Source: an uncultured Phycisphaerales bacterium
GTDB taxonomy: Bacteria; Planctomycetota; Phycisphaerae; Tepidisphaerales; Tepidisphaeraceae
Reading direction: 5' to 3'
Length of the DNA stretch: 64,000 nt
Assembly (NCBI GenBank): GCA_963758525.1
Contig: CAVWVQ010000003.1
Location: 2,624,001 to 2,688,000, forward strand
Of the stretch, positions 15,747 to 50,465 are shown one piece after another. A program made the translations under genes and the position numbers. The number at the start of each line of letters is the position of its first letter. The stretch's first letter is position 1. The notes under the pieces are model-generated. The model saw nothing but the letters and a program-made list of their open reading frames with translations. It had not been told where the DNA came from and did not search any database.

Positions 15747-17357
15747 GTGATATTTCCCACGGATTGGATCAAGCAGGCCATCCTCCACCCCGAGCAGGCA
15801 GTCCGAGCGACCGCATTGCTGTACTTCACCGAGTCATTCAGCGATGACCCTGCGGTGATGCCGTTCGTGATCCAGGCGGTCGAACGATACGGCAAAGAAA
15901 CCTCCTTTGATCTGCTCCGTCACGCCGAATGGCTGTGCCAGACTCCGGCGACCGTTGATTGGCTCATCGGCCAGCTTCGCTGTGAGCTCGACACCACAGA
16001 CATCAACGAGGACAACCTGCGCTTTGCCCTCGCACTCATCCTGTGCCACGCCGAACCGCAACTGCTGGCCCACCGTTACGGCGAGATTATCGCTTCCCCT
16101 GCTTTTCCCGAGTCGCTCAGGGAACCGCTGCGTGAGTGTCTGAAAATGGAATTCTCCGACTGGCTGACGCTATGGAAGATGTTTGAGGAACTCGCCCGGC
16201 AGACGATGGAGAATCAGAGACTGTCGAGGGCCGACTACCACCGATATCACCGCATAATGCGGGCGCTGGCCCGCCACACAGCCGCGGACGCGGACTTGGT
16301 GCTGTCATTGTTGCGCGATTACCGAGGTCACGACCAGGCACTGGTGGTGTGGTTGGAGCCGTGTATCGTTGAACTTGCCGGGCGATTGCGGCTGGTCGAT
16401 GCGATCCCACTGATCCTTGAGCGAATCGACGCCGACACGGATGCCGTGGTGGACGAGATCAGCAACGCCCTCATCCGGATCGGGGGCGATGCCGTGGTAA
16501 CCGCCGTCATCAAGAGATGGCCTTCGGCCCGCACGAACTCCCGATACATACTGGCTGAGGCTCTGCAACACATCCACACAGATACGGCCCATAAACATCT
16601 GCTTGACTGCTTGAAAGCGCCTGACGATTGTGATCTGGAAATCTACATCACCAACTGTGCACTGGGGCACTTCAGCCAGCGAGCCAACGAGGCGGCACGG
16701 CAACTGTTGCTCGAATTCGGCGAGGAGGAACTGAGTGGCGAGCATTGGGATTTACGTTACCACCTGATTGCCGCCGCCACATTGATGGAGGAATCTTTCC
16801 CAGAATATGAGGCGTGGCATGAGGAGGCGGTGAGAAGCAACTACGGCAGGACGAAGCTCAGGCAGGACAAGCCCAGGCGATTGGCCGATGCCTTCACGGG
16901 AGACGAGGAAGCACCCTCACCTTCGAGCGGCGGCAGGAGCAGCAGTGTGCCTGCAAAACCGAGGCGCAAATTGGAGGTCCAAAGATCCAGTAGCGGTTGC
17001 GGCGACAATGCTGCGCCCACAAACCAGAACGAATCCGTCAGCACGATCTCTGTCTCGGCCGACCAACTCTGGAAAGATTTCCAGGAGAACGAAGTCGCGG
17101 CCAACATGAGATACAAGGGGAAAACCGTAAGGGTCGAAGGAAGCGTCGCAGCTATCAAGGTCAAATCCGGCAGGCCCCACATTTACCTGCGGAGTGAATA
17201 TGATGGCGTAGACTGCGCATTCACGGATTCTGACAATGCTGATCTGGCGAGGTTGAGCAAGGGCAGCCTTGTTGCCGTTCAAGGTGACTGCACGGGCATG
17301 GTTTACGGGATCGTGGTGGCGCTGGACAATTGTCGATTGATTCAGGGAAGTTCATGA
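15747..17357 (+). CDS. HEAT-repeat-like protein fused to a C-terminal tRNA_anti-like OB-fold
   Basis: AIPLILERI...ALIRIGGDAVV repeats; C-terminal SADQLWKDFQENEVAANMRYKGKTVRVEG. Confidence 0.7.
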   Translation: MIFPTDWIKQAILHPEQAVRATALLYFTESFSDDPAVMPFVIQAVERYGKETSFDLLRHAEWLCQTPATVDWLIGQLRCELDTTDINEDNLRFALALILCHAEPQLLAHRYGEIIASPAFPESLREPLRECLKMEFSDWLTLWKMFEELARQTMENQRLSRADYHRYHRIMRALARHTAADADLVLSLLRDYRGHDQALVVWLEPCIVELAGRLRLVDAIPLILERIDADTDAVVDEISNALIRIGGDAVVTAVIKRWPSARTNSRYILAEALQHIHTDTAHKHLLDCLKAPDDCDLEIYITNCALGHFSQRANEAARQLLLEFGEEELSGEHWDLRYHLIAAATLMEESFPEYEAWHEEAVRSNYGRTKLRQDKPRRLADAFTGDEEAPSPSSGGRSSSVPAKPRRKLEVQRSSSGCGDNAAPTNQNESVSTISVSADQLWKDFQENEVAANMRYKGKTVRVEGSVAAIKVKSGRPHIYLRSEYDGVDCAFTDSDNADLARLSKGSLVAVQGDCTGMVYGIVVALDNCRLIQGSS

Positions 17358-17461
17358 ACTGCTGCGGATGGCCAGGACCATCGCCGCACTGTGGTGCCCC
17401 ATGCCTCCCGCCACGCCTGAGGGCTTTTGCCACGACGCTGCTGGTAAACGAGCACACGCTC

Positions 17462-17479
17462 CTGACAGCATTGTGTCAG
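17462..17479. promoter_or_regulatory. Putative WYL box 2, autoregulatory position (CTGACAGCATTGTGTCAG)
   Basis: Palindrome ~80 bp upstream of the WYL gene start. Confidence 0.7.
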
Positions 17480-17557
17480 CGACGCTCCCAGCAAATTTTG
17501 GCGAAACAGTTTTTCACCGTTAGGATGCCGCTTACCACTGACACAGGGGTGCTCGCG

Positions 17558-18598
17558 ATGGCTGCGGACTACTCTCGGATTCACCGGCTGCTCAAGATCC
17601 TCATGCTCATCCAGGGGCAGAAAGATTGGACCGCCAAGCGCCTGGCGCTGGAATGTCACACCACCGAGCGAAGCATCTACCGTGATCTCAAGATGCTGCA
17701 GGGAGCGGGCGTGCCGTATTTCTTTGACAAGGAGAATGGCGGATACGCCGTGCAGAGGGACTTCTTCATGCCGGCGGTGGCTCTCACCCTTGAAGAGTCC
17801 CTGGCCCTGGTGGCGCTGGCCGAGCAAGTAGGGGGGCGCGAGCAGGTGCCATTCACCAAGGCGGCCGCCAAGGCAATCGCCAAGATCCGCTGCAACCTGC
17901 CGCCGAAGGTGCAGCAGGAGCTGCAGAAGATCGACGATCTGGTCGCTATTCACCTCTCACCCGTGAATCCACCGGAGGGCACGGAAGATGTCTACGAGGT
18001 GGTGCGGGCGGCGCTGGCCAACCGCAAGACGCTGGAATGCAGCTACGACTCAATCGGCGCGAGTCAGAAGGGGGTTGATGGCAATGGCGGTGTGAAAGAG
18101 ATCTTTTTGTTCAGGCCGTACACGCTGCTGTTCAGCCAGCGGGCCTGGTACGCGCTGGGGCACCACGATGGCAGAGGTGCCGTGCGGTGTCTGAAGCTGA
18201 ACCGCTTCACACGCTGCAAATCTACCGAGATTCTTTATGACATTCCCAAGAGCTTTGCGGTCGGCAAACATCTGGGCAATGCGTGGCGGATGATCCGGGG
18301 GAGCAAGTCATACGATGTCGAGTTGCGGTTCGATGCCGAGTTCGCCGAGACCATTGCCGACACGCACTGGCACGCAACGCAGGAAGTGATCTGGAACGAC
18401 GACGAGTCAATCACGTTCTGGTGCGAAGTAGACGGTTTGGACGAAATCGTGTGGTGGATCCTGGGGATGGGCCCGCACTGCGTGGTGAAGAAGCCGGCGG
18501 AGTTGGCGAGCCAGGTCAGTGGTCTGGCCGCGGCGATCGTCAAGCAGTACGACGCGAAGCCCTCCAGCAAGCCCCGCAAAAAGATAACTTCACTGTGA
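17558..18598 (+). CDS. HTH-WYL-WCX transcriptional regulator (PafB/YafY/DriD-like)
   Basis: RIHRLLKIL...TERSIYRDLKML wHTH; FRPYTLLFSQRAWYALG...LKLNR WYL; EIVWWILGMG WCX. Confidence 0.93.
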   Translation: MAADYSRIHRLLKILMLIQGQKDWTAKRLALECHTTERSIYRDLKMLQGAGVPYFFDKENGGYAVQRDFFMPAVALTLEESLALVALAEQVGGREQVPFTKAAAKAIAKIRCNLPPKVQQELQKIDDLVAIHLSPVNPPEGTEDVYEVVRAALANRKTLECSYDSIGASQKGVDGNGGVKEIFLFRPYTLLFSQRAWYALGHHDGRGAVRCLKLNRFTRCKSTEILYDIPKSFAVGKHLGNAWRMIRGSKSYDVELRFDAEFAETIADTHWHATQEVIWNDDESITFWCEVDGLDEIVWWILGMGPHCVVKKPAELASQVSGLAAAIVKQYDAKPSSKPRKKITSL

Positions 18599-31718: not shown

Positions 31719-34700
31719 ATGTACCACGACACAGAGGGCCTGCGCTTTTCGCCCACCGACCTGATCGTCTACCTGGAGGGTGAGTTCGGCTCATGGATGG
31801 ACCGGTCGTATCTGGAGCAGAGGCGAGAAATGAACGCACCGGCGACGGCCGCAGGCGCGGCGCTGGCGTATCGGCCGGATGGCGACAGCGCGGAAATGAA
31901 GCTGATCAAGGTCAAGGGAATAGAGCACGAGCAAGCATTCCTGCAGTCGCTCAAGACAGCGGGTTACAGAATTGTCGAGGTTATCCAGGGCGATGACGCC
32001 GCAGGTCACACTCTGCAGGCCATGCGCGATGGCGCTCAGGTCATCTATCAGGCGTGCGTCGAGGCCGCACCGTTCCGTGGTTACGCCGACTTTCTGAATC
32101 GACAGGGGGGCATCTCATCCCTGGGCGCACACCACTACGAAGTCTGGGATACGAAGTTGGCGAAATCCGCCAAGCCGTATTTCGTGATCCAGCTGTGCGC
32201 CTATGCCGAAATGCTCGAAGTGCTGCAAGGCCGCCGGCCGGAGGGCGTGGAGATTGTGCTGGGCACCAACGATCGCCGGCGTTTCAGGACCAACAACTAT
32301 TTTTACTACTACCGCTGTCTGAAGAACGGTTTTTTGAAGTTCCAGGAAAAGTTCGACGCAGAACAGATGCCTCATCCCGGTTTCTCACGGGGCTACGGGC
32401 GCTGGAGCGACGTGGCGGAGAGGATCCTGGCCGAATCCGACCACCTGATTGGCGTGGCACGGATGACCCGAACGCAGGTGAAGCGGCTGGAAGCTGCCGG
32501 CATCACGACGATCGCGGCGCTGGCCGCTTCCAATCAGTCGACAATCCTCGGCATGGACCCCCTGATCCTGGCCCGGCTCAGGAAACAGGCGCAGCTGCAG
32601 ATTCAATCTCGTGGCAAAGACACGCCGGCATTCGAGGTGGTGGCACCGCAGGCCGACGATCCCCGGCGCGGGCTGGCGCTTCTGCCACCTCCTTCGCCGG
32701 GGGATGTGTTCTTCGACATGGAAGGCTACCCCTTTGCGGCCGACGGATTGGAATACCTGTTTGGAGCCACATATCAGGAAGGGAAAGAGTTGCGGTTCGC
32801 CGACTGGTGGGCGCACGACGCGATTCAAGAGAAAACCGCCTTCGTGGGGTTTGTGACCTGGGCGCACCGGCGATGGAAGCGCGACCCGGACATGCACATT
32901 TACCACTACGCGGCCTACGAGCCCTCGGCGCTGCGACGGCTCATGGGTAAGTTTGCCACCTGCGAAGTCGAGGTGGATGAGCTGCTGCGGAACCAGGTCT
33001 TCGTGGACCTCTACACCGTGGTGCGGCAAGGCGTGGTCGTCGGGACGCCGAGCTATTCACTGAAAGACGTCGAGCGGGCGTACATGCGGCCGCGAACCGG
33101 GTCGGTAACAAGCGCTTCTGGATCGATCATCGCATATCAAGCATGGATGGAGAGTGAGCAGCCGCAGAGCTGGCAGGGCTCCCCGATCCTTCGGGAGATC
33201 CGTGATTACAACCAACTGGACTGTGATTCGACGTTCGAGCTCGCGGTCTGGCTGCGCAGGGTGCAGGCCACGCATAACATCGCCTACCTTCCGGAGAAGA
33301 CCGACGCGCCTGGCGACGCGGATCACGAGGACCCCGGCAGGGAGAATCCCAGCAAGGCTCTGGCCGAGAGACTCCTGAAGGAGATTGAAGACAACAAGGT
33401 CACCGATCCCGAGCGCCGGCGGGTGCAGGAGTTGTTGGCGTGGCTGCTGGAGTTCCACTGGCGAGAAGCCAAGCCGGTCTTCTGGCTCATGTTTGAGCGC
33501 CACGACATGACCGAAGAAGAGCTGTCGGCTGACCTGGACTGCCTCGGCGGCCTGCAACGAACCAAAGAACGACCGATACCGGTAGATCGCTCGCGGTTGA
33601 TCGGCTACCGGTACGACCCTGACCAGGACACCAAACTTTGTCCCGGCAGTAAATGCTTCTTTGCTCACGACCTGAGCGCGAAGGTCACCATCGAGACGAT
33701 GGACCGGCAATAGGGGCTGCTCCAGATTCGGTTCGGTCCATCCGTACCAGAAGTCCCTGACCGACTGAATCTAATTCCCAACGAGTACGTATCTGCAAGG
33801 TCGATCTCTGACGCCGTCTGCCGCTACGTGGATGGATGGAGCCACGGTCAGATTCGATCGCAGGCGGTCGATGATCTGATCCACCGCCGGCTTCCCTGGA
33901 TCAAGAGGCATGCGGGCGGCGCAGTGGTGCCGGACGGCGTCGATCTGCTGCCGGCGCTGACCGACGTCATGCGGCGGCTGGATCACACGACGCTGTGTAT
34001 CCAGGGGCCACCGGGATCGGGCAAAACATTTACCGCGGCGCATGTCATCGCCGAGCTGCTGCGTGACGGCAGACGGATCGGGGTCATGGCCAGCAGCCAC
34101 AAGGCGATCCTGAACCTGATGGAGGCGATCGCCGAGGCCGTTGAAGAGAAAGGGATCACCGCACGGCTGGTGAAGGTGGGTGGCGACGCTGATGAACCGT
34201 TGATCGCAACCGGTGTGGTTGAGCATTGCCCCCAAAACTCAGCTGCCGCAGAGGAACTGGGGTCTCGAAGCCTCGTGCTTGGGGGGACTGCCTGGCTCTT
34301 CAGTCGACCGGAGCTGGAAGGGCAGTTGGATTACTTGTTCGTGGACGAAGCTGGACAGGTTTCGCTGGCGAACATCGTCGGCAGCGGGCCGTGTGCCAGG
34401 AACATCATCCTCGTGGGCGATCAGATGCAGCTATCGCAGCCGACGAAGGGATCGCATCCCGGCGAGAGCGGCCTATCCGCGCTCGATTACCTCCTCCAAG
34501 GACACGCGACGATCCCGCCCGAACTGGGCGTGTTCCTGAGCAAGACATATCGTATGCACCCGGAAGTCTGCGAATTTATCTCGCAGGCCGTGTACGAGGG
34601 GCGGCTGAAGTCTCATCCCGATACCGCCAGGCAGGCGGTCCTCTGCGGTGATAAAGACCACGGAATGATCCGACGGCAGTCAGGCGTGAGCTTTGTGCCC

Positions 34701-35168
34701 GTCGAGCATGAAGGCAACGCCCAGGCAAGCGACGAGGAAATCGAGATCATCGAGGCGATCATCAGGCAGTTGCTCGGCAGGTGCGTGGTTGAGCGTGATG
34801 GTACGCAACGGGATTTAACGCTCAGCGACATCCTGATCGTCGCGCCGTACAACATGCAGGTCCGGCGACTGCAGGTCCGGCTGGGAACCAATGCTCGCGT
34901 TGGCACGGTCGACAGTTTCCAGGGCCAGGAAGCTCATGTGGTGATTGTCTCTATGTGCGCGTCGAGCGTGGAAGACAGTCCACGCGGGCTTGAGTTCCTG
35001 TTGAACAAGAACCGCATCAATGTTGCGGTGTCCAGGGCAAAGAGCCTCGCGATTGTGGTGTGGTGCCCGAATCTCATGGCAGCACGCTGCCGCACGATCG
35101 AGCAGATGGAACTCGTGAATCTGTTTTGCTGGCTGGCGGCATATGCGGAAGAGTTGTCGGCCCGATAG
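31719..35168 (+). pseudogene. TM0106-family RecB-like nuclease / RNase H-like / SF1 helicase, with one in-frame TAG at 33711-33713
   Basis: FSPTDL, GYADFL..YEVWDTK, FFDMEG, YNQLDC, QGPPGSGKT, VDEAGQ, GDQMQL, FQGQE, NVAVSRA; both ORFs share one frame. Confidence 0.9.
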
Positions 35169-36247: not shown

Positions 36248-36387
36248 CGCGCCTTCGATGCACTTCCAATCCCGTGGTGATCGAAGCATACGCAGCCTTG
36301 CTAAGCCTCTCCATCGGGGCTGTTCCGTTTTGACTGTTTGCTGGCGTGGGACCGCTCCCAACGTTAATCTTTTCCCACGCGGGGAAC

Positions 36388-39300
36388 ATGAGCACTCAAT
36401 CGAACATCCACTCTCCGAACTTCTCGTTTCTAGGCAGGCACGGCGAAGTCCTACTCAGGTACGGTGCCTTGGCCGAGCGATACGTCTTTGACGATCCCAA
36501 CTCCGCACTGATTAAACTTCGCCAGCTTGGCGAGGCGCTCGCGAAGAAGATCGCCGCGTCCATCGGCTTGGCGATCGATCCCGACATCGACTTTCTTGGT
36601 CTGTTAAACAAGCTCCGCGATTCCGGGGTGCTGACACCCGAGGTCGCCGAGCTTTTCCACGGTCTCCGCAAGGCGGGCAACGCGGCCGCCCATGACGGTG
36701 TCGGGACACAACGCGAAGCACTGCATCAGCTCAAGATGGCTCGCATCCTCGGAGTGTGGTTTCAGAAGGCATTCGGAAACGAGCCGAAGTTCAAGGCCGG
36801 TCCCTTCGTGCCTCCGCCCGACCCGCGCCAGGCTGAATCAGCCCTCGTTGCGGAACTCGATCAGCTCCGCAAACAACTCGCCGCTGGCGAAGCGGAAACC
36901 CACACCGCGAAATTGACCGCCCAACAAGAGGCGAAACTCAGACAGGACGCCGAGGTCCGCGCCAGCGCCATGTATCACGACCTGGAGGCGGCCTTCGCTC
37001 TCGCCGAAGATGCTGAACGCCGCCTCGAAGCCGACCGTCGGCAATTCGCGCAGGCACTCGCCACCCAACAGGCACAGGTGGTGCAACAGGCTACAGTTGC
37101 TCCGGCTACCGTTCAGGCCACCATCAGCCTGGCTATCCAGGCCGGCAACGCGCTCGATCTCTCCGAAGCCGATACTCGTAAGCTCATTGACGCCGAACTC
37201 CGAGAGGCCGGCTGGGAAGCCGACACCCCTCTCCTCCGCTATGCTGCCGGCACCCGACCACAGAAGGGGACCAACATCGCCATCGCCGAGTGGCCCACAG
37301 CCTCCGGCCCCGCTGACTACGCCCTGTTCGTCGGGCTCGTCTGCGTCGGCGTGGTTGAGGCCAAGCGCAAGAACAAGGATGTGGCCGGCTCCATCGAGCA
37401 GGCCAAACGCTACAGCAGGGGTTTTACGTTCGACGCTAATCAAACCGCAACGGGAAGCCCGTGGGGTTCTTACAAGGTCCCGTTCCTATTCGCCACCAAC
37501 GGCCGGCCATTTCTTCGGCAACTCATCACCAAGAGCGGCATCTGGTTCCTCGACGGCCGCGCCGCACACAATAACGCCCGCGCCCTCCAGGGTTGGTACA
37601 CGCCCAGCGGCCTGTTGGACCTCCTCAAACAGGACGAGCAGGCCGCCCAGGAAACCCTCCGTGCCGAGCCAACCGACTACCTGCCGCTCCGCGACTTCCA
37701 GAAGCGTGCCATCGCCGCCGTCGAGAAAGCGCTGGAGCAATCCCGCCGTCAACTGCTCATCGCCATGGCCACTGGCACCGGCAAGACCCGAACCAGCATT
37801 GGCATGGTTTACCGCCTGATCAAAGCCAAGCGATTTAACCGCGTCCTGTTCCTCGTGGACCGTTCCGCCCTTGGCGAGCAGGCCACCGACGCCTTTAAGG
37901 ACGTGCGACTTGAGAGCCTCAAGACCTTCTCTGACATTTATGACGTGAAGGAGATGGGCGACCTCCGTCCCGACGCAGACACTCGTCTTCACGTTGGCAC
38001 CATCCAGGGCATGATGCGCCGCATCCTCCTCTCCGAGGACCGCGAGCCCATCCCCGTCGATCTCTATGATTGCATCGTCGTCGACGAGTGCCATCGCGGC
38101 TACCGCTGGGATGACCTGATAATGAAAGACGGCATCGAGCAGCTCAACTTCTATAAATCCCTACTCCTGCACCTGGGCACCAAGGGCTCTGGTCGCGTGC
38201 AGGCGATCTTCGCCGACGCCACGACCTCGCTCCGCCAGCCACGCAATCTGGCCAAGCTCGTGACCGACATTGATGCCCTCGACTGGTATTCTGCAAAGAG
38301 CGAAGGTCTTGGAGATCTCTATGAAGGGCTGTTGGAGAAGAATGCCAACGAGAAGAAGTCCGGTGCCGGGCAGTATTTCACGCCACGACCACTGATCGAG
38401 TGCATGGTCGAGCTCACCCAGCCCCAGGCTGGCGAGTTCGTGCAGGACCCTGCTGCCGGCACCGGCGGCTTTCTCATCGCCGCCGACCGGTACATCAAGG
38501 CCCGTACCGACGACCTCTTCAAGCTTTCCGTGCGCCTGCAGGATTTTCAGAAGCGCCAAGCATTCTACGGCATCGAGCTTGTCCCCGACGCCCACCGCCT
38601 GCTGCTGATGAACGCTATGCTGCACGATATTGAAGGTGATCTGATTCTCGGCGATACGCTTTCCGCCGACGGTGCCAAGCTCCCCGTCGCCGATGTCATC
38701 CTCACCAATCCGCCGTTCGGCACGAAGAAAGGGGGCGGTCAGCCCACCCGTGACGACTTCACCTACCCCACTTCCAACAAGCAGCTCTGCTTCCTCCAGC
38801 ATGTTTACCGTGGCTTGCGTCCCAGCACCAAGGAGAAGGTTAGTCGTGCGGCCATCGTCCTGCCGGACAACGTCCTGTTTGAAGAAGGCGTCGGTGCCCA
38901 GGTCCGGGCTGATCTGATGGACAAGTGCAACTTACACACGATCCTTCGCCTGCCGACCGGCATCTTCTACGCGCAGGGTGTCAAGACCAATGTCCTGTTC
39001 TTCACCCGCGGCCTGGCCGCGAAGGACACCGGCAACACTAAGGGCGTCTGGATCTACAACATGCGGGCCAACATGCCTGCTTTCGGCAAGCGCACGCCTC
39101 TCACCATCGAGCATTTCAAAGACTTCAGGGTCGCCTATGGTCGCGACCCGCTCGGCCAATCGAAGCGGAAAGACCATGGGGAGGAAGGACGCTTCCGCTA
39201 CTTCACCCGCGAGTTCATCCGCGACAAGAAGGGCGAAAGCCTCGACATTTCCTGGCTGAAGGACGATAGCGACGGCAGCAACGAAGTGCTGCCCGATCCT

Positions 39301-39399
39301 GATGAAATCGCGGCTGCGATAACGGCGAAGCTGAAGACGGCGATGAAGGAGATGGGCGAGCTTGTGGAGATACTGGAAGGGCAGGAGGTGGACACGTGA
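36388..39399 (+). CDS. In-frame fusion of Type I HsdR N-terminal half and HsdM (N6-adenine MTase)
   Basis: DUF4145-like start, PADY..VVEAKR nuclease, MATGTGKT, DECHRGY, then directly RWDDL...GQYFTPR, DPAAGTGG, TNPPF. Confidence 0.9.
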   Translation: MSTQSNIHSPNFSFLGRHGEVLLRYGALAERYVFDDPNSALIKLRQLGEALAKKIAASIGLAIDPDIDFLGLLNKLRDSGVLTPEVAELFHGLRKAGNAAAHDGVGTQREALHQLKMARILGVWFQKAFGNEPKFKAGPFVPPPDPRQAESALVAELDQLRKQLAAGEAETHTAKLTAQQEAKLRQDAEVRASAMYHDLEAAFALAEDAERRLEADRRQFAQALATQQAQVVQQATVAPATVQATISLAIQAGNALDLSEADTRKLIDAELREAGWEADTPLLRYAAGTRPQKGTNIAIAEWPTASGPADYALFVGLVCVGVVEAKRKNKDVAGSIEQAKRYSRGFTFDANQTATGSPWGSYKVPFLFATNGRPFLRQLITKSGIWFLDGRAAHNNARALQGWYTPSGLLDLLKQDEQAAQETLRAEPTDYLPLRDFQKRAIAAVEKALEQSRRQLLIAMATGTGKTRTSIGMVYRLIKAKRFNRVLFLVDRSALGEQATDAFKDVRLESLKTFSDIYDVKEMGDLRPDADTRLHVGTIQGMMRRILLSEDREPIPVDLYDCIVVDECHRGYRWDDLIMKDGIEQLNFYKSLLLHLGTKGSGRVQAIFADATTSLRQPRNLAKLVTDIDALDWYSAKSEGLGDLYEGLLEKNANEKKSGAGQYFTPRPLIECMVELTQPQAGEFVQDPAAGTGGFLIAADRYIKARTDDLFKLSVRLQDFQKRQAFYGIELVPDAHRLLLMNAMLHDIEGDLILGDTLSADGAKLPVADVILTNPPFGTKKGGGQPTRDDFTYPTSNKQLCFLQHVYRGLRPSTKEKVSRAAIVLPDNVLFEEGVGAQVRADLMDKCNLHTILRLPTGIFYAQGVKTNVLFFTRGLAAKDTGNTKGVWIYNMRANMPAFGKRTPLTIEHFKDFRVAYGRDPLGQSKRKDHGEEGRFRYFTREFIRDKKGESLDISWLKDDSDGSNEVLPDPDEIAAAITAKLKTAMKEMGELVEILEGQEVDT

Positions 39400-41528
39400 G
39401 CGATGAGGATGACATCCTTCCTGCCGGTTGGATCGAGGCTCCGATCAGTGACTTGGCCGTTGAAAGGGTCGAGCAGTCTGGTCCCACAGAAGCCAGCGTC
39501 TTCACTTACATTGATATTGGCAGCGTCGATAATGCGGCGAAGGCAATCGTCAGCCCGAAAGTGATGGAATGCCGGTCGGCACCGAGTAGGGCACGTCAAA
39601 GCGTGAAGACTGGTGACGTCCTTGTTTCAATGACGCGACCGAATCTCAACGCCGTCGCATGCGTACCGCCAGAACTTGACGGAGCGATAGCATCGACTGG
39701 CTTTGACGTTCTCAGATCCTCCGAGATTCACCCGGACTGGATCTTTGCCCACGTCCGGTCGCAGCCATTCGTGGAGAAGATGACGTCTCTCGTGCGTGGA
39801 GCACTCTATCCTGCGGTGAATTCACGCGAAGTGCGGAGCTATGTCATTTCTGTGCCACCTGTGGCCGAACAGAAAAGAATCATCTCGAAGATTTCATCAC
39901 TGGAGAATCGCAGTCGCAAAGTCCGCGAAGCATTGGAAGCAGTCGGTCCATTGTTGAACCATTTCCGGCAATCGGTCTTGGCGGCGGCGTTCCGTGGCGA
40001 CCTCACGGCTGACTGGCGTGCCGCCCATCCCGACACCGAGCCCGCCAGCGCCCTGCTCGCCCGCATCCGCCAGGAGCGCCGCCACAAGTGGGAAAAGGCC
40101 GAGCTGCCCAAGATGAAAGCTAAGGGCAAGAAGCCCACCGATGACAAGTGGAAAGAGCGGTATGAGGAGCCGGAGCCGGTGGTTGACGCCGATTTGCCGG
40201 ATTTGCCGGAGGGGTGGTGCTGGTGCCCTTTGCACGAAGTCGGATACTTAAATCGGGGGAAATCTCGTCACCGTCCTCGAAATGCCGAACACCTTTACGG
40301 CGGTGCTTATCCGTTTGTCCAGACCGGCGACATTGCAAACTCCGGCGGTAAGATCCTGAGACATTCGCAGACTTATTCTGAGGCGGGCTTGGAACAAAGC
40401 CGGCTCTGGCCAACCGGAACTGTATGCATCACGATCGCGGCGAACATAGCAAGTTCCGCGGTTCTCACCTATCCCGCTTGCTTTCCTGATAGCGTGGTTG
40501 GCGTCATCCCGGATTCTCAATTGTGTTCGCCAGAGTTTCTTGAGTTCTTTCTGCGGACGGCCAAGGAAAACCTTGAGCGCTTCGCTCCTGCGACTGCCCA
40601 GAAGAACATCAACGTCGGCATACTAAACGACGTCGCCGTACCTCTCCCACCATCAGGCGAATTACGTGAACTTGTGAGTCGAGTCACGCACGCTTTTAGG
40701 GCGATTTCATGTGTGGAGATTCAAGTCTCTGACGCCCTGCGGGACTTGAGTATTCAAGACCAATCCATCCTCGCCAAAGCCTTCCGTGGCGAATTGGTAC
40801 CGCAAGATCGCAATGACGAGCCGGCGTCGCTCCTGCTGGAGCGCATCCGCGCCGCCCGTGAGCCCGGGGAGAGCAACGACAACGGCAATGGCACTCGCCG
40901 CAAGGGACGACTTAACCACCAGCCTGACGTTGCCGCAACCGACGATGGGCCTCGTCCCGCTTTGGAAGGCAAGCCAGCAGCAAAGGACAAACCAGATGCC
41001 ACCGCCAAACAGTTAGAGCTATTCCAGAAATCCGACGGCCGCACAACCCATGGGAATGTTGCGGTCGCGTCTACCGCTCTACCGATCGACGTGACCGACC
41101 GCGACGAGGTGATGGCTGCCGTGCGCGAGGTATTCACCGACGGCGTCACCCGTGACCGCGAGACGGCCTTGCGGGAACTGTCCAACGCGTTGGGCTATGG
41201 CCGGCTGGGAGCGCGCATTCGCGATGCGCTCGATGGCGATCTTCGCACAGCCGTCCGCCGTGGCATCCTGGAAAATACTCCGGCCGGCTTGCGCATCCTC
41301 TGCCGCAACATCTCCGATTACGACCGCGATTTCTTGATTGAGCAATTGTTGGCCGGCATTGGGACCAATTGGTGGGACCGCGAGGTGTTGATCGAGGGCA
41401 CCGCCCGCTGGCTAGGCTATCGCCGCACCGGACCTGTGATTGCGGAGACGCTTGCAAGCGCCATCACCCTGGCAATCCGGCGTGAGATTCTGTCTGCCGA
41501 TGGTTCGCGCGTCCGACGGCTGAAGTAA
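39396..41528 (+). CDS. hsdS: Type I specificity subunit with an extra C-terminal tandem wHTH-like extension
   Basis: LPAGW/LPEGW, PPVAEQKRI, QSVLAAAFRG, QSILAKAFRGELVPQ; GTGA overlap with the MTase gene. Confidence 0.9.
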   Translation: MSDEDDILPAGWIEAPISDLAVERVEQSGPTEASVFTYIDIGSVDNAAKAIVSPKVMECRSAPSRARQSVKTGDVLVSMTRPNLNAVACVPPELDGAIASTGFDVLRSSEIHPDWIFAHVRSQPFVEKMTSLVRGALYPAVNSREVRSYVISVPPVAEQKRIISKISSLENRSRKVREALEAVGPLLNHFRQSVLAAAFRGDLTADWRAAHPDTEPASALLARIRQERRHKWEKAELPKMKAKGKKPTDDKWKERYEEPEPVVDADLPDLPEGWCWCPLHEVGYLNRGKSRHRPRNAEHLYGGAYPFVQTGDIANSGGKILRHSQTYSEAGLEQSRLWPTGTVCITIAANIASSAVLTYPACFPDSVVGVIPDSQLCSPEFLEFFLRTAKENLERFAPATAQKNINVGILNDVAVPLPPSGELRELVSRVTHAFRAISCVEIQVSDALRDLSIQDQSILAKAFRGELVPQDRNDEPASLLLERIRAAREPGESNDNGNGTRRKGRLNHQPDVAATDDGPRPALEGKPAAKDKPDATAKQLELFQKSDGRTTHGNVAVASTALPIDVTDRDEVMAAVREVFTDGVTRDRETALRELSNALGYGRLGARIRDALDGDLRTAVRRGILENTPAGLRILCRNISDYDRDFLIEQLLAGIGTNWWDREVLIEGTARWLGYRRTGPVIAETLASAITLAIRREILSADGSRVRRLK

Positions 41529-42489: not shown

Positions 42490-44610
42490 TCATTTTGGCC
42501 CGGGCTTTAGCTTTGGAACAAGCCCTAACTCCTTCATATCGTCAACAGTTTCGGGGATCCATTTCAAGGCGGTCTTCGGATTGCGGCGGACTTTATAGGG
42601 ATCTTCGGCAAAGTGTTTGGCGACCTTCGCAGCGATTTCTTCCGCCGTGCCACCTTCGAGCAAGCACTCCCACAAACAGCGGTCATAAGGATCGCGCGGG
42701 TACTTTACATGAGATCCGCCGGCACTGGCGGTGGAAGGCGCGGGCGGAAGGCCGGCGGCTTCATTGAGTCGGTCGGGGTTCCAGACCTGGTTCGCGATTG
42801 CGACGTATAGTTGCTGCCGTGCTTCAATGTCGGCTTTCTTGAACTCCTTGTGCCCGACAAACGGAAGGCCCGCTTGTTTTAGCTTTTTGAGTGGCGGATT
42901 GCGGTCGTACGCATCCGGATTGAGGGATTGCGCCAGCAGATTCTGTTCCAGGTATTTCGGCAATTTCTTGGCATATGACCAGTCATTGTAGCTAGCGTTG
43001 AAAGTTTTCGGCAGCAGCAGAAGCCCCCCGAGGCGATTGCGATATTCGTCGAAATCCGTTTTGTGTGTAAACTCTTCCTTGTGCTGATCCCAATGGTCGG
43101 CCCAGATGTGCTCCACCTCGTAGCCGTTCTTGCGACCTTCGGACATGAATTCTTCAAAATGCGACGCCAGACCGCCGTGCACTTCGATGAAATCTGTCAT
43201 GCGGGCCAATAGCCATTTGATCGAATAACGATTCATCTGGGTCAGCCCGAACGTAGGACGGGTGTCAAAAGTTTCTTCCTCGTCGTCCAGGCGCTTGCGC
43301 AGGATCGTCACGAGCTGCTCCGGGGACTTTCCCCGAATGTCACGCATGATGAGAAACATGGCGTATTGCATCGTCGAGTAGGCGATCGAGCGGTAGTTCC
43401 AAATCCGGCGTGCGATAAGAATGTCCACAAAAGACGCGACGATTTCTATTTTCTGTAGCCGCGTTGCCTCATCATCGGCGATCTTTAACGGGGCGAGGAG
43501 CAGCGGATATTGAAGGGTAAAATCGAGCCACGAGTTTGCGTAGACGATTTCAAAGCCCTTAACGGGCTTGAGGGAAGCGCGGGAAAGCAGCTCATACTGG
43601 CCGGAGTAGAATTTGAAGTCTTGTTCGACAAACCGGACGTAATCGGCGGACTTTGCGAGCCCCAGTCGCTCTTCGTTCTCCTTCTTCCGCACCCAGCGAT
43701 GGAACTCCGTGCCCAGACGGTCAAAATCACCGGGCTGCGCGCCTTTCTTGCGTTCCCGGATTGAATCCGCGTATTGGCTGCGCAGCCACGCTTTGACCGC
43801 ATCCGTCGGTTCTTCCTTATCGATTTCGAGAAGGCGATTGGTGGTCTGCTTCCAAATGGCGTTGACGCGATCGCGCTCGCCCTCGTCGGTGACGTTGGCA
43901 ATGAGGTAGCTCTTGAGCATGTCCAGCGGTGCCAGCGAGAGGCCGCGGTCATTCATGGTCTCAAAAATTGTATAGGCATCATCGTCGGAGTAAGCCGTGA
44001 TCTCGACGACGTGAACATTGGTGAGCAGCCAGTCCAAGAAGAAAGGCAGCGCCTGATCGTCGATGTCGGGTGGAAAATCTTCTGCGATCTCCTGATAGCG
44101 GGCGACCATGTTGCGTACCGCCTCCGGATCTTTGACCGTAGGGCTGTAATGCTTGCCGGCGTAGAGAGCGTCGAGGCATGGAGTGCGTTCGGGCACGTCG
44201 ATATTAAAAGATTTCTTACCGTACGTGACGGAGAGAATCAGATGATTCACAGGAACCCGTCGCTCTTCCGGTAGACCACGCTGCCGATGGTGCAAGTAAA
44301 TTAGGAACAAAGTCAATGTGGTGAGGCGCTGCTGGCCGTCGATGATGAAGCTCTGACCCTTCTTCTGGCTGAGGATAATTGAGCCGAGAAAGTAGTGGCC
44401 ATATTTCGCGACGGCGTCACGTTCCTGGTCTGGCTCGTAATGTTCCAGAAATTTCCTGCACAAGTCGTCAATCAGTTCGACGAGCTGCTTTGTCTGCCAC
44501 TTGTATTCACGCTGGTACGGGTCAATGGCGTAACGACGACTGAAAAACAATTCCCCGATGGTGCGGCCTTTGCCATCAATATCTTGGCGTTGAACTTCGG
44601 ACGTGCTCAT
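42490..44610 (-). CDS. DUF262-DUF1524 (GmrSD/SspE-like) modification-dependent nuclease
   Basis: YQREYKW, IIDGQQRLTT, IFETMNDRG, VEHIW...LGGLLLL...FNAS. Confidence 0.92.
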   Translation of the reverse strand: MSTSEVQRQDIDGKGRTIGELFFSRRYAIDPYQREYKWQTKQLVELIDDLCRKFLEHYEPDQERDAVAKYGHYFLGSIILSQKKGQSFIIDGQQRLTTLTLFLIYLHHRQRGLPEERRVPVNHLILSVTYGKKSFNIDVPERTPCLDALYAGKHYSPTVKDPEAVRNMVARYQEIAEDFPPDIDDQALPFFLDWLLTNVHVVEITAYSDDDAYTIFETMNDRGLSLAPLDMLKSYLIANVTDEGERDRVNAIWKQTTNRLLEIDKEEPTDAVKAWLRSQYADSIRERKKGAQPGDFDRLGTEFHRWVRKKENEERLGLAKSADYVRFVEQDFKFYSGQYELLSRASLKPVKGFEIVYANSWLDFTLQYPLLLAPLKIADDEATRLQKIEIVASFVDILIARRIWNYRSIAYSTMQYAMFLIMRDIRGKSPEQLVTILRKRLDDEEETFDTRPTFGLTQMNRYSIKWLLARMTDFIEVHGGLASHFEEFMSEGRKNGYEVEHIWADHWDQHKEEFTHKTDFDEYRNRLGGLLLLPKTFNASYNDWSYAKKLPKYLEQNLLAQSLNPDAYDRNPPLKKLKQAGLPFVGHKEFKKADIEARQQLYVAIANQVWNPDRLNEAAGLPPAPSTASAGGSHVKYPRDPYDRCLWECLLEGGTAEEIAAKVAKHFAEDPYKVRRNPKTALKWIPETVDDMKELGLVPKLKPGPK

Positions 44611-45645
44611 GATTTCCCTTTCAGCAGTTCATCAAGCAGACCATCTGCTTCCTTTTCCAGGGCGAGAATGTCGGCACGGAGGACGTCTAGGCTCTGTCTG
44701 ACGGATCGAATGTTCGGCGCTCGTTAGGTATTGCGCGTTCTTCTATGATCGTCATGATGTTCTCCACATGGAGGACAGATGGCGCACTACGAACTCACGG
44801 ATGATCACTGGAACCTGATCAAGGCACTTTTCCCCGTACAAAAACGTGGCGGACGATGGAACGACCACCGCATCACGCTCAATGGGATGCTCTGGATTCT
44901 TCGCTCCGGAGCTCCATGGCGAGACATGCCCGAACGCTACGGGAAATGGAAGAGCGTCTATGATCGCTTCAACCGCTGGCGGCGCGAAGGCTTCTTCGAT
45001 CGCATCCTCAAAGCACTGCGGATTCGACTCAACAAGGAGGGCAAGATCGATTGGGATCTCTGGCTCGTCGACGGCTCCAATGTGCGTGCTTCTCGCGCTG
45101 CCGCCGGGCGCGCAAAGGGGGCGCGGCCTCGACTTCGAACCGGCCGACCACGCGCTGGGCCGCTCGCGCGGCGGATGGGGATCAAAGTTCCACGTGGTTA
45201 CTGACGGAAAGGGCCTTGTGCTCGCCGTCACCGTTACCGCGGGGCAAACGCACGAATCCACGCAGCTCCACAAGGTGATGCACGCGGTGCAGCACCCCTG
45301 CACATCGGCTGGCCGGGGAAGATCGCGGGCGACAAAGGGTACAGCTACGAAACCGTTCGCCAGTTCCTGGCCGATTGCGGGATCGAAGCCGTCATCCCGC
45401 GCAAATCCAATCAGCCACGACCAAAGGGCGAGCGATTCGATAAAAGCAGCTACCGCAAACGAAGCCGCATCGAGTGTGCTATCGGATGGCTCAAGGAATG
45501 TCGTCGGCTGGGAACACGCTATGAGAAGCTGGCTCTTAACTTCTTGAGCTTCGCCAAACTCGCTATCATGCTGAAATACCTGAGGGTTCTCGATCCGTCA
45601 GACAGAGCCTAACGACCACAGAGGCTGATAGAATACGGCGAACAT
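44607..45645 (-). pseudogene. C-terminal remnant of a second hsdM, interrupted by the IS5
   Basis: Removing the IS gives FYQPLWSLDVLRADILALEKEADGLLDELLKGKS*, overlapping the DUF262 start by ATGA. Confidence 0.65.
44690..45609 (+). mobile_element. IS5-family insertion sequence, 920 bp
   Basis: 19-bp perfect IRs GGCTCTGTCTGACGGATCG; TA duplication; transposase from 44779 (LTDDHW, GAPWRDMP, GRSRGG, GDKGY) split at ~45115 and ~45310. Confidence 0.95.
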
Positions 45646-49493: not shown

Positions 49494-49634
49494 AGGCTAT
49501 CGTGGACAAAGCGAGATGGCTGCGGTCCGCTGAAATTGCGTGACCCTTTCGTTAGACCTCGGGCCGGGACCATTGTAACGGTCGAAGGGCAGGGCGAGCA
49601 CGTTGCAGGAAATAATTGGCTCGATGGTGTGAAC

Positions 49635-50465
49635 GTGGGACGACAAAAAGAACACTCCGTGCTTGACGAGGTGTTCGAACGGCTGAAGGTGACCCCGATC
49701 TGGTTCGGACCTGTACTTGCGCTCGTAGTATTCGTCTTTTTCCGATTCGCGATCCCACTGCTCATGCCATCAGCAAAGCCGGGATTCTCGGTTTCTTCGC
49801 TATTACTTCAGATGCTGCCGCTGCTTTCCTGGCTGGCCGGTGGCGCTCTATTGCTGGCGTGGTTCATGGCTGAACTCTGGAAGCTATTCAACCGTCGTCT
49901 TCTCGACGGCCAAACAGGACTCGCAAGCATTCGAGATGTCTCATGGCAGGAGTTCGAGCGTCTGGTCAGTGAAGGCTATCGACGCATGGGCTATGTAGCG
50001 GAGGTCGTCGGAAGCGCATCGGGCGATGGTGGTGTAGACATCAGACTCACCGGGTTCGGCGAGAAGGTACTTGTTCAATGCAAGCAGTGGCGAGCGTATA
50101 CCGTCGGCGTCACGACTGTTCGGGAGTTGCTCGGCGTGGTCGTCAGCCAGAGGGCAGATAAGGGCATTCTGGTAACTTCTGGAAGGTTCACGCAGCAGGC
50201 CAAGCTGTTCGCCGCCACGAATCCTGCCATTGAGTTAGTAGATGGTCCGGCACTGTTCGAGCTGATTCGTGCGGTACAGAAGAGTTCCGACAAGCGGAAT
50301 GCGTTTCCCGGTCAACCGACCATTCCGGTGGCACATTCACCAGAATGTCCCTCCTGTCGTTCGGAGATGGTCCTACGCATCGCACGCAAGGGAGCTAATC
50401 CCGGCTCCCGATTTTGGGGCTGCCCGAACTACCCTCGCTGCCGGGGAACCAGACCTGCCATTTGA
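49635..50465 (+). CDS. Membrane-anchored Mrr-like endonuclease with C-terminal topoisomerase-type Zn ribbon
   Basis: Two TM helices, SWQEFERLV, DGGVD...VQCK, CPSC...FWGCPNYPRC. Confidence 0.9.
   Translation: MGRQKEHSVLDEVFERLKVTPIWFGPVLALVVFVFFRFAIPLLMPSAKPGFSVSSLLLQMLPLLSWLAGGALLLAWFMAELWKLFNRRLLDGQTGLASIRDVSWQEFERLVSEGYRRMGYVAEVVGSASGDGGVDIRLTGFGEKVLVQCKQWRAYTVGVTTVRELLGVVVSQRADKGILVTSGRFTQQAKLFAATNPAIELVDGPALFELIRAVQKSSDKRNAFPGQPTIPVAHSPECPSCRSEMVLRIARKGANPGSRFWGCPNYPRCRGTRPAI

Follow-up and report, generated by a model that had tools for sequence, protein, structure and literature searches.

Type I restriction-modification enzymes of the EcoKI family (Type IA-like; NCBIfam PRK11448 and PRK09737; PDB 2y7c and 2ar0) and Type IIB enzymes such as BcgI and BsaXI are the described systems closest to the locus studied here. 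Type IIB enzymes carry a nuclease and a gamma-class methyltransferase (MTase) in one chain and use a separate S subunit with two target recognition domains (TRDs). BcgI is described as an RM chain plus S at 2:1 (PMC3874165), and the account of characterised Type IIB chains in PMC11997821 gives them a nuclease, a complete multi-helical connector and an MTase, with no translocase. An evolutionary path leading from Type I to Type IIB was proposed in a study of engineered nuclease-HsdM fusions of the SauSI (CC398-1) system (RM_EB_2 to RM_EB_11; Bower et al. 2018, PMC6158711). The present analysis concerns a fused hsdR'::'hsdM gene followed by hsdS at positions 36,388–41,528 of a 64,000-nucleotide stretch of DNA, hereafter the window, from an uncultured Phycisphaerales bacterium (GenBank assembly GCA_963758525.1, contig CAVWVQ010000003.1). 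The fusion is what remains of an EcoKI-family Type I system and does not belong to Type IIB. A recent microhomology deletion of approximately 1.9 kb, which decayed an ordinary Type I system and left a restriction-dead and probably methylation-dead product, was considered the best explanation, with a probability of roughly 60%.

The fused gene is a single uninterrupted open reading frame (ORF) with an ATG start (Table 1); an alternative GTG start at 36,346, upstream of the ATG, would overlap the neighbouring gene. The EcoKI-type HsdR model PRK11448, which has 1123 positions, was matched by amino acids (aa) 9–576 of the ORF over model positions 3–557 only, and M.EcoKI (2y7c/2ar0) was matched from its residue 51 by aa 569–929 and 929–996. 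The preliminary description of this DNA had reported an in-frame HsdR::HsdM fusion, and this was confirmed, as one frame follows the HsdR model up to the motif II sequence DECHRGY and then continues as HsdM. Regular expressions located the nuclease ExK, Walker A, motif II, YFTP, MTase motif I (aa 687) and NPPF (aa 774) in the 1003-aa ORF; helicase motif III, motif VI and the HsdM N-terminal 'KLW' were not found in it. The expressions covered motifs III and VI, and motifs IV and V fall in the absent HsdR stretch, in agreement with the earlier statement that helicase motifs III–VI and the start of HsdM are missing. The ResIII (PF04851) match stops at profile position 139 of 164 in the fusion versus 163 of 164 in the nearest intact HsdR, P0130 (1138 aa). 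PF00271 and PF08463 were found in P0130 and PF12161 in the nearest intact HsdM, P0122 (485 aa), but not in the fusion. The nuclease motifs listed in Table 1 (D, ExK and QxxxY) have established roles in HsdR. The start of hsdS overlaps the end of the fused gene by 4 bases (GTGA), and the two-TRD architecture of HsdS is supported by matches to PRK09737 in two stretches and by the PADLOC model Specificity_I over aa 6–490. Residues 560–710 of HsdS resemble small clusters of hypothetical proteins (Atlas scores of 0.93–0.96), with DUF3320 present on 38% of the members of one cluster.

Compared with the EcoKI family, the gene order, the homology of all three subunits in one locus, the nuclease motifs, Walker A, motif II, MTase motif I, NPPF and the two-TRD HsdS are the same. 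In contrast, HsdR here stops 569 residues short, so that everything from motif III on, including RecA2 and EcoEI_R_C, is absent, HsdM is without residues 1–52 and is not separate, and both remnants lie in one chain. The engineered SauSI fusions likewise place an HsdR N-terminal part on HsdM with a separate HsdS, but as described in PMC6158711 they keep the full HsdM with little or no motor and are methylating, whereas 147 motor residues are kept here and the HsdM start is gone. Type ISP enzymes share the order of nuclease, helicase-like and MTase sequence in one polypeptide; according to PMC6158711 they keep a complete motor and the TRD in the same chain, whereas the motor is broken here and S is separate. 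Single-chain Type IIG enzymes have the TRD in the same chain, whereas hsdS is here a separate ORF after a TGA stop.

With Type IIB, the locus shares one nuclease-MTase chain and a separate two-TRD S, and a collapse to a Type IIB/IIG-like layout had initially been suggested. This suggestion was not borne out, as the join lies inside two domains, a motor stump is kept and the connector is truncated, the kinship to BsaXI is partial and no conserved family was found. Type IIB enzymes form conserved families that cut both sides of their bipartite site, with a need for SAM and Mg but not for ATP, and methylate both strands, whereas the present join is a singleton; they have no motor, whereas a 147-aa RecA1 stump with Walker A and DECH intervenes here. 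Their connector is complete, whereas here HsdM helices 4–19 and 25–44 are missing and model confidence is low at and after the join. The best sequence and fold matches of the fusion are Type I HsdM structures; BsaXI (PDB 8w0p) was matched by Foldseek over 279 columns only (TMq 0.19, rank 37) and was not among the 12 phmmer matches of the fusion.

Alignment to intact relatives, which had been proposed as a way to size the deletion, gave an estimate of about 1.9 kb. Residues 5–572 of the fusion align to P0130 with 76% identity over the BLAST segment (452/598), and aa 571–1001 align to residues 53–483 of P0122 with 90% identity (390/431), so that HsdR 570–1138 (569 residues) and HsdM 1–52 (52 residues) are missing in comparison with these relatives. 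P0130 and P0122 are probably neighbouring genes, because both are from JGI, each with a longest contig of 43,785 bp. All close relatives found have the intact layout. Among 160 database loci surveyed, both sites equivalent to the Gly-Tyr at the join could be located in 116, all of them intact, with a median spacing of 1878 bp and a minimum of 1854 bp; the spacing was 1856, 1896, 2338 and 4080 bp in four loci of the same phylum. The deletion would therefore have removed about 1.9 kb, provided that no extra gene lay between hsdR and hsdM. When the lost parts (P0130 570–1138 and P0122 1–54) were searched by tblastn against the bacterium's own genome, which is 91% complete, only an 80-aa match with 35% identity to another hsdR on contig C1 was obtained, and PF08463, the lost HsdR C-terminal domain, had no match in the genome.

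Gly571-Tyr572 at the join is encoded by GGCTAC (38,098–38,103), and Gly-Tyr is present at the matching place in both P0130 and P0122. Among the 120 closest short HsdM matches listed, 108 have GY or GF before RW at this place. Gly-Tyr occurs at both sites in 39 of the 116 loci, and an identical 6-mer at both sites in 13 of 116, or 6 of 22 among loci with a G+C content of at least 55%. A repeat of 6–7 nucleotides in the parent DNA is therefore regarded as plausible. These results support the earlier proposal that the Gly-Tyr join was common to both parents, and also that of a deletion between a Gly-Tyr repeat shared by hsdR and hsdM, although the cause itself is reconstructed. The Gly-Tyr site does not appear special, because each intact locus counted (11 counted of 12 tried) had 139–501 in-frame repeats of at least 6 nucleotides shared by hsdR, downstream of its nuclease part, and the 5' portion of hsdM.

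The join was searched for in several collections, and a second copy was not found. In an unfiltered HMMER search, in which the fused protein would rank first, the same join was not present among the top 150 cluster representatives: 107 matched HsdR only, 42 HsdM only, and one (P0380) was a different, short R::M join. Three word-indexed protein searches scored 7,998 candidates each with the best 120 listed, a depth at which rarer copies could escape; short-protein searches revealed none spanning the junction among the best 120 matches listed. None of the 80 GTDB loci listed had HsdR and HsdM matches in one frame, and no second copy was found in the 160 database loci. Among 401 genomes of the same phylum, 40 had a match, and the junction was spanned only in the bacterium's own genome. 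From 72,556 plasmids, 50 matching records were obtained, none of which covered 80% of the junction peptide. A degenerate pattern gave one match in viral contigs, a 65-codon frame without HsdR or HsdM similarity, and in 176 loci matched only this unrelated viral contig and the own locus. E. coli genomes gave no DNA match to the junction in a search of low sensitivity, and no paper describing a natural in-frame hsdR::hsdM fusion was among those listed in searches of the open-access literature. As judged from these searches, the join appears to be a singleton, in the sense that a second copy was not found rather than being absent.

Other R::M joins were also found. Eleven other proteins among 241 matched both HsdR and HsdM, and eight of them (P0003, P0055, P0087, P0128, P0131, P0133, P0170 and P0200) were deletion-type joins. 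Excluded from this count were P0129 (nearly whole R plus M in a eukaryote-labelled gene call), P0134 (a long unrelated read-through between the parts) and P0039 (HsdR tail plus M only). The eight joins are scattered, with HsdR ending at approximately 510 to 1030 and HsdM starting at approximately 36 to 254; five belong to single-member clusters and the others to clusters of 2, 6 and 7 members. The S-adenosylmethionine-binding MTase motif I is absent in three of the eight, which means that clearly dead products are among them. P0055 breaks right after the same DExHRGY motif (DEAHRGY) and enters HsdM about 13 residues earlier than the present fusion. P0055 and P0087 have different in-frame joins made from parent alleles of 98% identity, and both are singletons from Logan contigs. 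Fusions of HsdM with HsdS could also be observed, as many close HsdM homologues carry Methylase_S in the same chain (e.g., P0006, P0007, P0010 and P0012–P0016).

The age of the join was assessed from the conservation of its parts. The motor stump of 147 residues is the best-conserved HsdR segment, with 91% identity to P0130, followed by the nuclease (83%), DUF4145 (75%) and the coiled coil (57%). It carries one change private to the fusion versus two private to P0130, and the HsdM segments hold no excess of private changes in the fusion. The coiled coil has eight private changes versus three, in a poorly conserved region. In an old, working, motor-less enzyme the useless stump should have drifted; the stump has neither drifted nor been remodelled, which points to a join that is very recent, or an artefact.

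In the superfamily 2 helicase fold, the motif III strand is positioned within the first RecA domain. As judged from the end of the ResIII match, this domain has lost the strand here, with RecA2 and the C-terminal domain also gone. With everything from motif III on missing, RecA2 and the C-terminal domain included, neither ATP hydrolysis nor translocation, and hence no cutting, would be expected, and the product is predicted with high confidence to be restriction-dead. A Walker A mutant of EcoKI HsdR (K477R) is reported to show no translocation and no cleavage (PMC4231737). The engineered nuclease-HsdM fusions, combined with HsdS, are reported in PMC6158711 to restrict in 0 of 10 cases and to modify in 10 of 10; they retained the whole HsdM including its Met, and the purified one was partly clipped.

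The product is also predicted, with moderate confidence, to be methylation-dead. The AlphaFold2 (AF2) model of intact P0122, with a mean predicted local distance difference test (pLDDT) score of 87.5, places helices 4–19 and 25–44 in the lost part. In the HsdM of T. tengcongensis (TTE; enzyme TteI), deletions of residues 1–10 and 1–30 are described as tolerated, and deletions of 1–40 and 1–50 as giving no stable HsdS complex (PMC3047542). Profile alignment revealed that TTE HsdM helix 30–59 is inside the part lost here, with the TTE YRW following residue 70. Since the lost part includes a helix whose deletion blocked M2S1 assembly in TteI, a stable M2S1-type methylase would be unlikely. The AF2 model of the fusion had a predicted template modelling (pTM) score of 0.44, with pLDDT below 50 at residues 570–578 (the join), 638–642 and 652–662. 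The residual N-domain ranged from 43 to 83 per block in the fusion versus 67 to 97 in the intact model; the nuclease and catalytic cores stayed confident, the catalytic domain mostly at about 80–98 per block. An internal restart yielding free HsdM was considered and rejected, as the first in-frame starts after the join (aa 579, 604 and 625) would lose still more of the N-domain.

The proposed sequence of events is a single recent deletion between two Gly-Tyr (GGCTAC-type) repeats, which would have joined 572 hsdR codons to an hsdM lacking its first 52 codons, probably by slippage or recombination between the short repeats. The frame would have been kept by chance, as in about one of three random deletions, and the HsdM N-domain would be destabilised without its first two helices. 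The host would not be harmed by losing methylation, since the nuclease is put out of action in the same event.

Several points weigh against the deletion and loss of function proposed here. No damage is seen in any MTase catalytic motif, in the C-terminal helix or in hsdS, and residual methylation is conceivable. The alignments behind the two AF2 models differed (41 full rows versus 38 mostly half-length rows), so the drop in pLDDT is partly technical. The TTE HsdM result, as described, concerns another enzyme family and may reflect insoluble truncated protein. The parental repeat is deduced from proteins and from more distant loci, with the identical 6-mer in only the 13 of 116 loci given above; the break of P0055 after the same DExHRGY could hint at a favoured site; and the join is known here from assembled sequence alone.

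A restriction-minus, methylation-plus allele, which the preliminary description had put forward, is a minor but genuine possibility. The catalytic domain and C-terminal helix would in this case remain able to bind HsdS, possibly once the HsdR part has been clipped off, and continue to mark a bipartite site. The restriction-minus half of this proposal is supported, as the motor is lost, and methylation-plus is doubtful, as the truncation of HsdM goes further than those that gave no stable HsdS complex in TteI. Motif I, NPPF and the C-terminal helix show no damage and are conserved, the catalytic domain is modelled with confidence, the intact hsdS overlaps the stop of the fused gene, and all ten engineered fusions modified DNA (PMC6158711). 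Yet those fusions kept the whole HsdM as described, residues 1–52 lost here exceed the TTE deletions that blocked assembly (PMC3047542), and 117 of the 120 closest short HsdM matches listed keep the N-terminus (aligned from residue 12 or earlier).

An artefact was judged rather improbable. In this case an unbroken hsdR-hsdM-hsdS would be present in the cells, and the 1.9 kb would have disappeared either during library preparation, by template switching at the repeat, or when the consensus was made. The assembly consists of 6 contigs, of which one measures 5.04 Mb, and appears to be an unpolished long-read assembly. It is noisy: frame changes were found in 7 of 55 orthologue-like genes when compared with a genome of the same genus (approximately 13%), and three frame breaks lie in the window. 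These three breaks (at about 26,040, 10,930 and 30,890), in an alpha-2-macroglobulin-like gene and two other long ORFs, stand beside short base runs and are probably assembly indels. The different joins of P0055 and P0087 from near-identical parents indicate that sporadic joins can arise in assemblies, and the absence of drift would be expected from an artefact no less than from a recent event. However, the errors seen are frame breaks and not kilobase losses, and the exact 1003-aa protein is listed for Logan as well as for NCBI and ENA, the table counting one contig. A Logan fragment (P0126, on a contig of 1,882 bp) agrees letter for letter with the final 248 residues of the GmrSD-family protein encoded nearby. 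This suggests that a second assembly of the raw data contains the same join. Moreover, no near-identical intact sister allele was found among the matches listed, where the best intact HsdM had 90% and the best intact HsdR 76–80% identity. In the assembly the join is real, and it probably exists in the organism too.

It would be a long shot to regard the locus as a fresh natural fusion at the first step of the proposed transition from Type I to Type IIB, assembling with HsdS, methylating and perhaps able to nick or cut DNA close to its site in the absence of ATP, with the hsdR motif II/hsdM Gly-Tyr repeat as a recurring launch point across the EcoKI family. A working Type IIB-like enzyme or evolutionary intermediate, an (RM)2S complex on a bipartite site with fixed-distance, ATP-independent cutting by the tethered HsdR nuclease, is scarcely credible despite the intact nuclease and MTase motifs and the layout and proposed route noted above: only half a RecA domain is left, broken between nuclease and MTase, the MTase helical domain lacks its first two helices, the best matches are Type I HsdM with BsaXI over 279 columns only, no second copy or family was found in the representatives, loci, same-phylum genomes, plasmids and viral contigs searched, and the engineered equivalents restricted in none of ten cases (PMC6158711), so that the intermediate cutting without translocation envisaged in the preliminary description is not sustained.

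Table 1. Positions of the fused gene, its parts and other features in the window
Feature	Position	Strand	Remarks
Fused ORF hsdR'::'hsdM	36388..39399	+	1003 aa
HsdR N-terminal DUF4145 domain and predicted coiled coil, aa 1–255	36388..37152	+	Pfam PF13643 aa 29–116; long helices in AF2 model
HsdR nuclease domain, aa 256–425	37153..37662	+	PF04313 aa 308–373; D310, E324-x-K326, Q338-xxx-Y342 in translation
Stump of first RecA-like motor domain, aa 426–572	37663..38103	+	Walker A aa 461–467; motif II DECH aa 566–569; ends before motif III
Join GGCTAC (Gly-Tyr)	38098..38103	+	Presumed sole remaining copy of a 6-nt direct repeat after a deletion of ~1.9 kb
HsdM from residue 55 on (P0122 numbering)	38104..39399	+	Rest of helical N-domain, catalytic domain, C-terminal HsdS-binding helix
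hsdS, 710 aa	39396..41528	+	Two-TRD specificity subunit (~aa 6–490) and C-terminal extension of ~220 aa
GmrSD-family gene	42490–44610	-	PF03235 and PF07510
IS5-family transposase in two frames	44779–45547	+	
Mrr_cat plus zinc-ribbon gene (Mrr-family)	49536–50465	+	
WYL regulator	17330–18598	+	

The surroundings of the locus have a defence-island setting (Table 1). A TM0106-family RecB-like nuclease and superfamily 1 helicase gene at 31,719–35,168 is one frame split by a single in-frame TAG (33,711–33,713), which may be either a nonsense mutation or a sequencing error. Frameshifts in neighbouring genes were considered as a sign of island decay and rejected, as the assembly breaks the frame in approximately 13% of the genes tested. 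A second Type I locus is located in the same genome on contig C1 (about 159,500–163,100, reverse strand) and is also broken in hsdR and hsdM: its hsdR ends after a 424-codon frame, followed by a 256-codon ORF, possibly DpnI-like, and by an hsdM without its N-terminus and with a frame break. PF01420 had no match on contig C1. A further pair of HsdM-like and HsdS-like genes lies near the end of contig C3 (5,037,340–5,039,835, reverse strand).

As read here, the locus is one more broken Type I system, eye-catching through its in-frame join, and matters little in itself. Its modest value lies in providing a natural parallel to the Type I to IIB fusions made by engineering. According to a remark published with those fusions, the majority of fusions of this kind are unsuccessful and become eliminated (PMC6158711), and the few scattered natural R::M joins fit this remark. 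If the protein were nevertheless found to methylate or cut together with HsdS, the model of a Type I to Type IIB transition, which the laboratory fusions did not complete, could be tested on a natural example.

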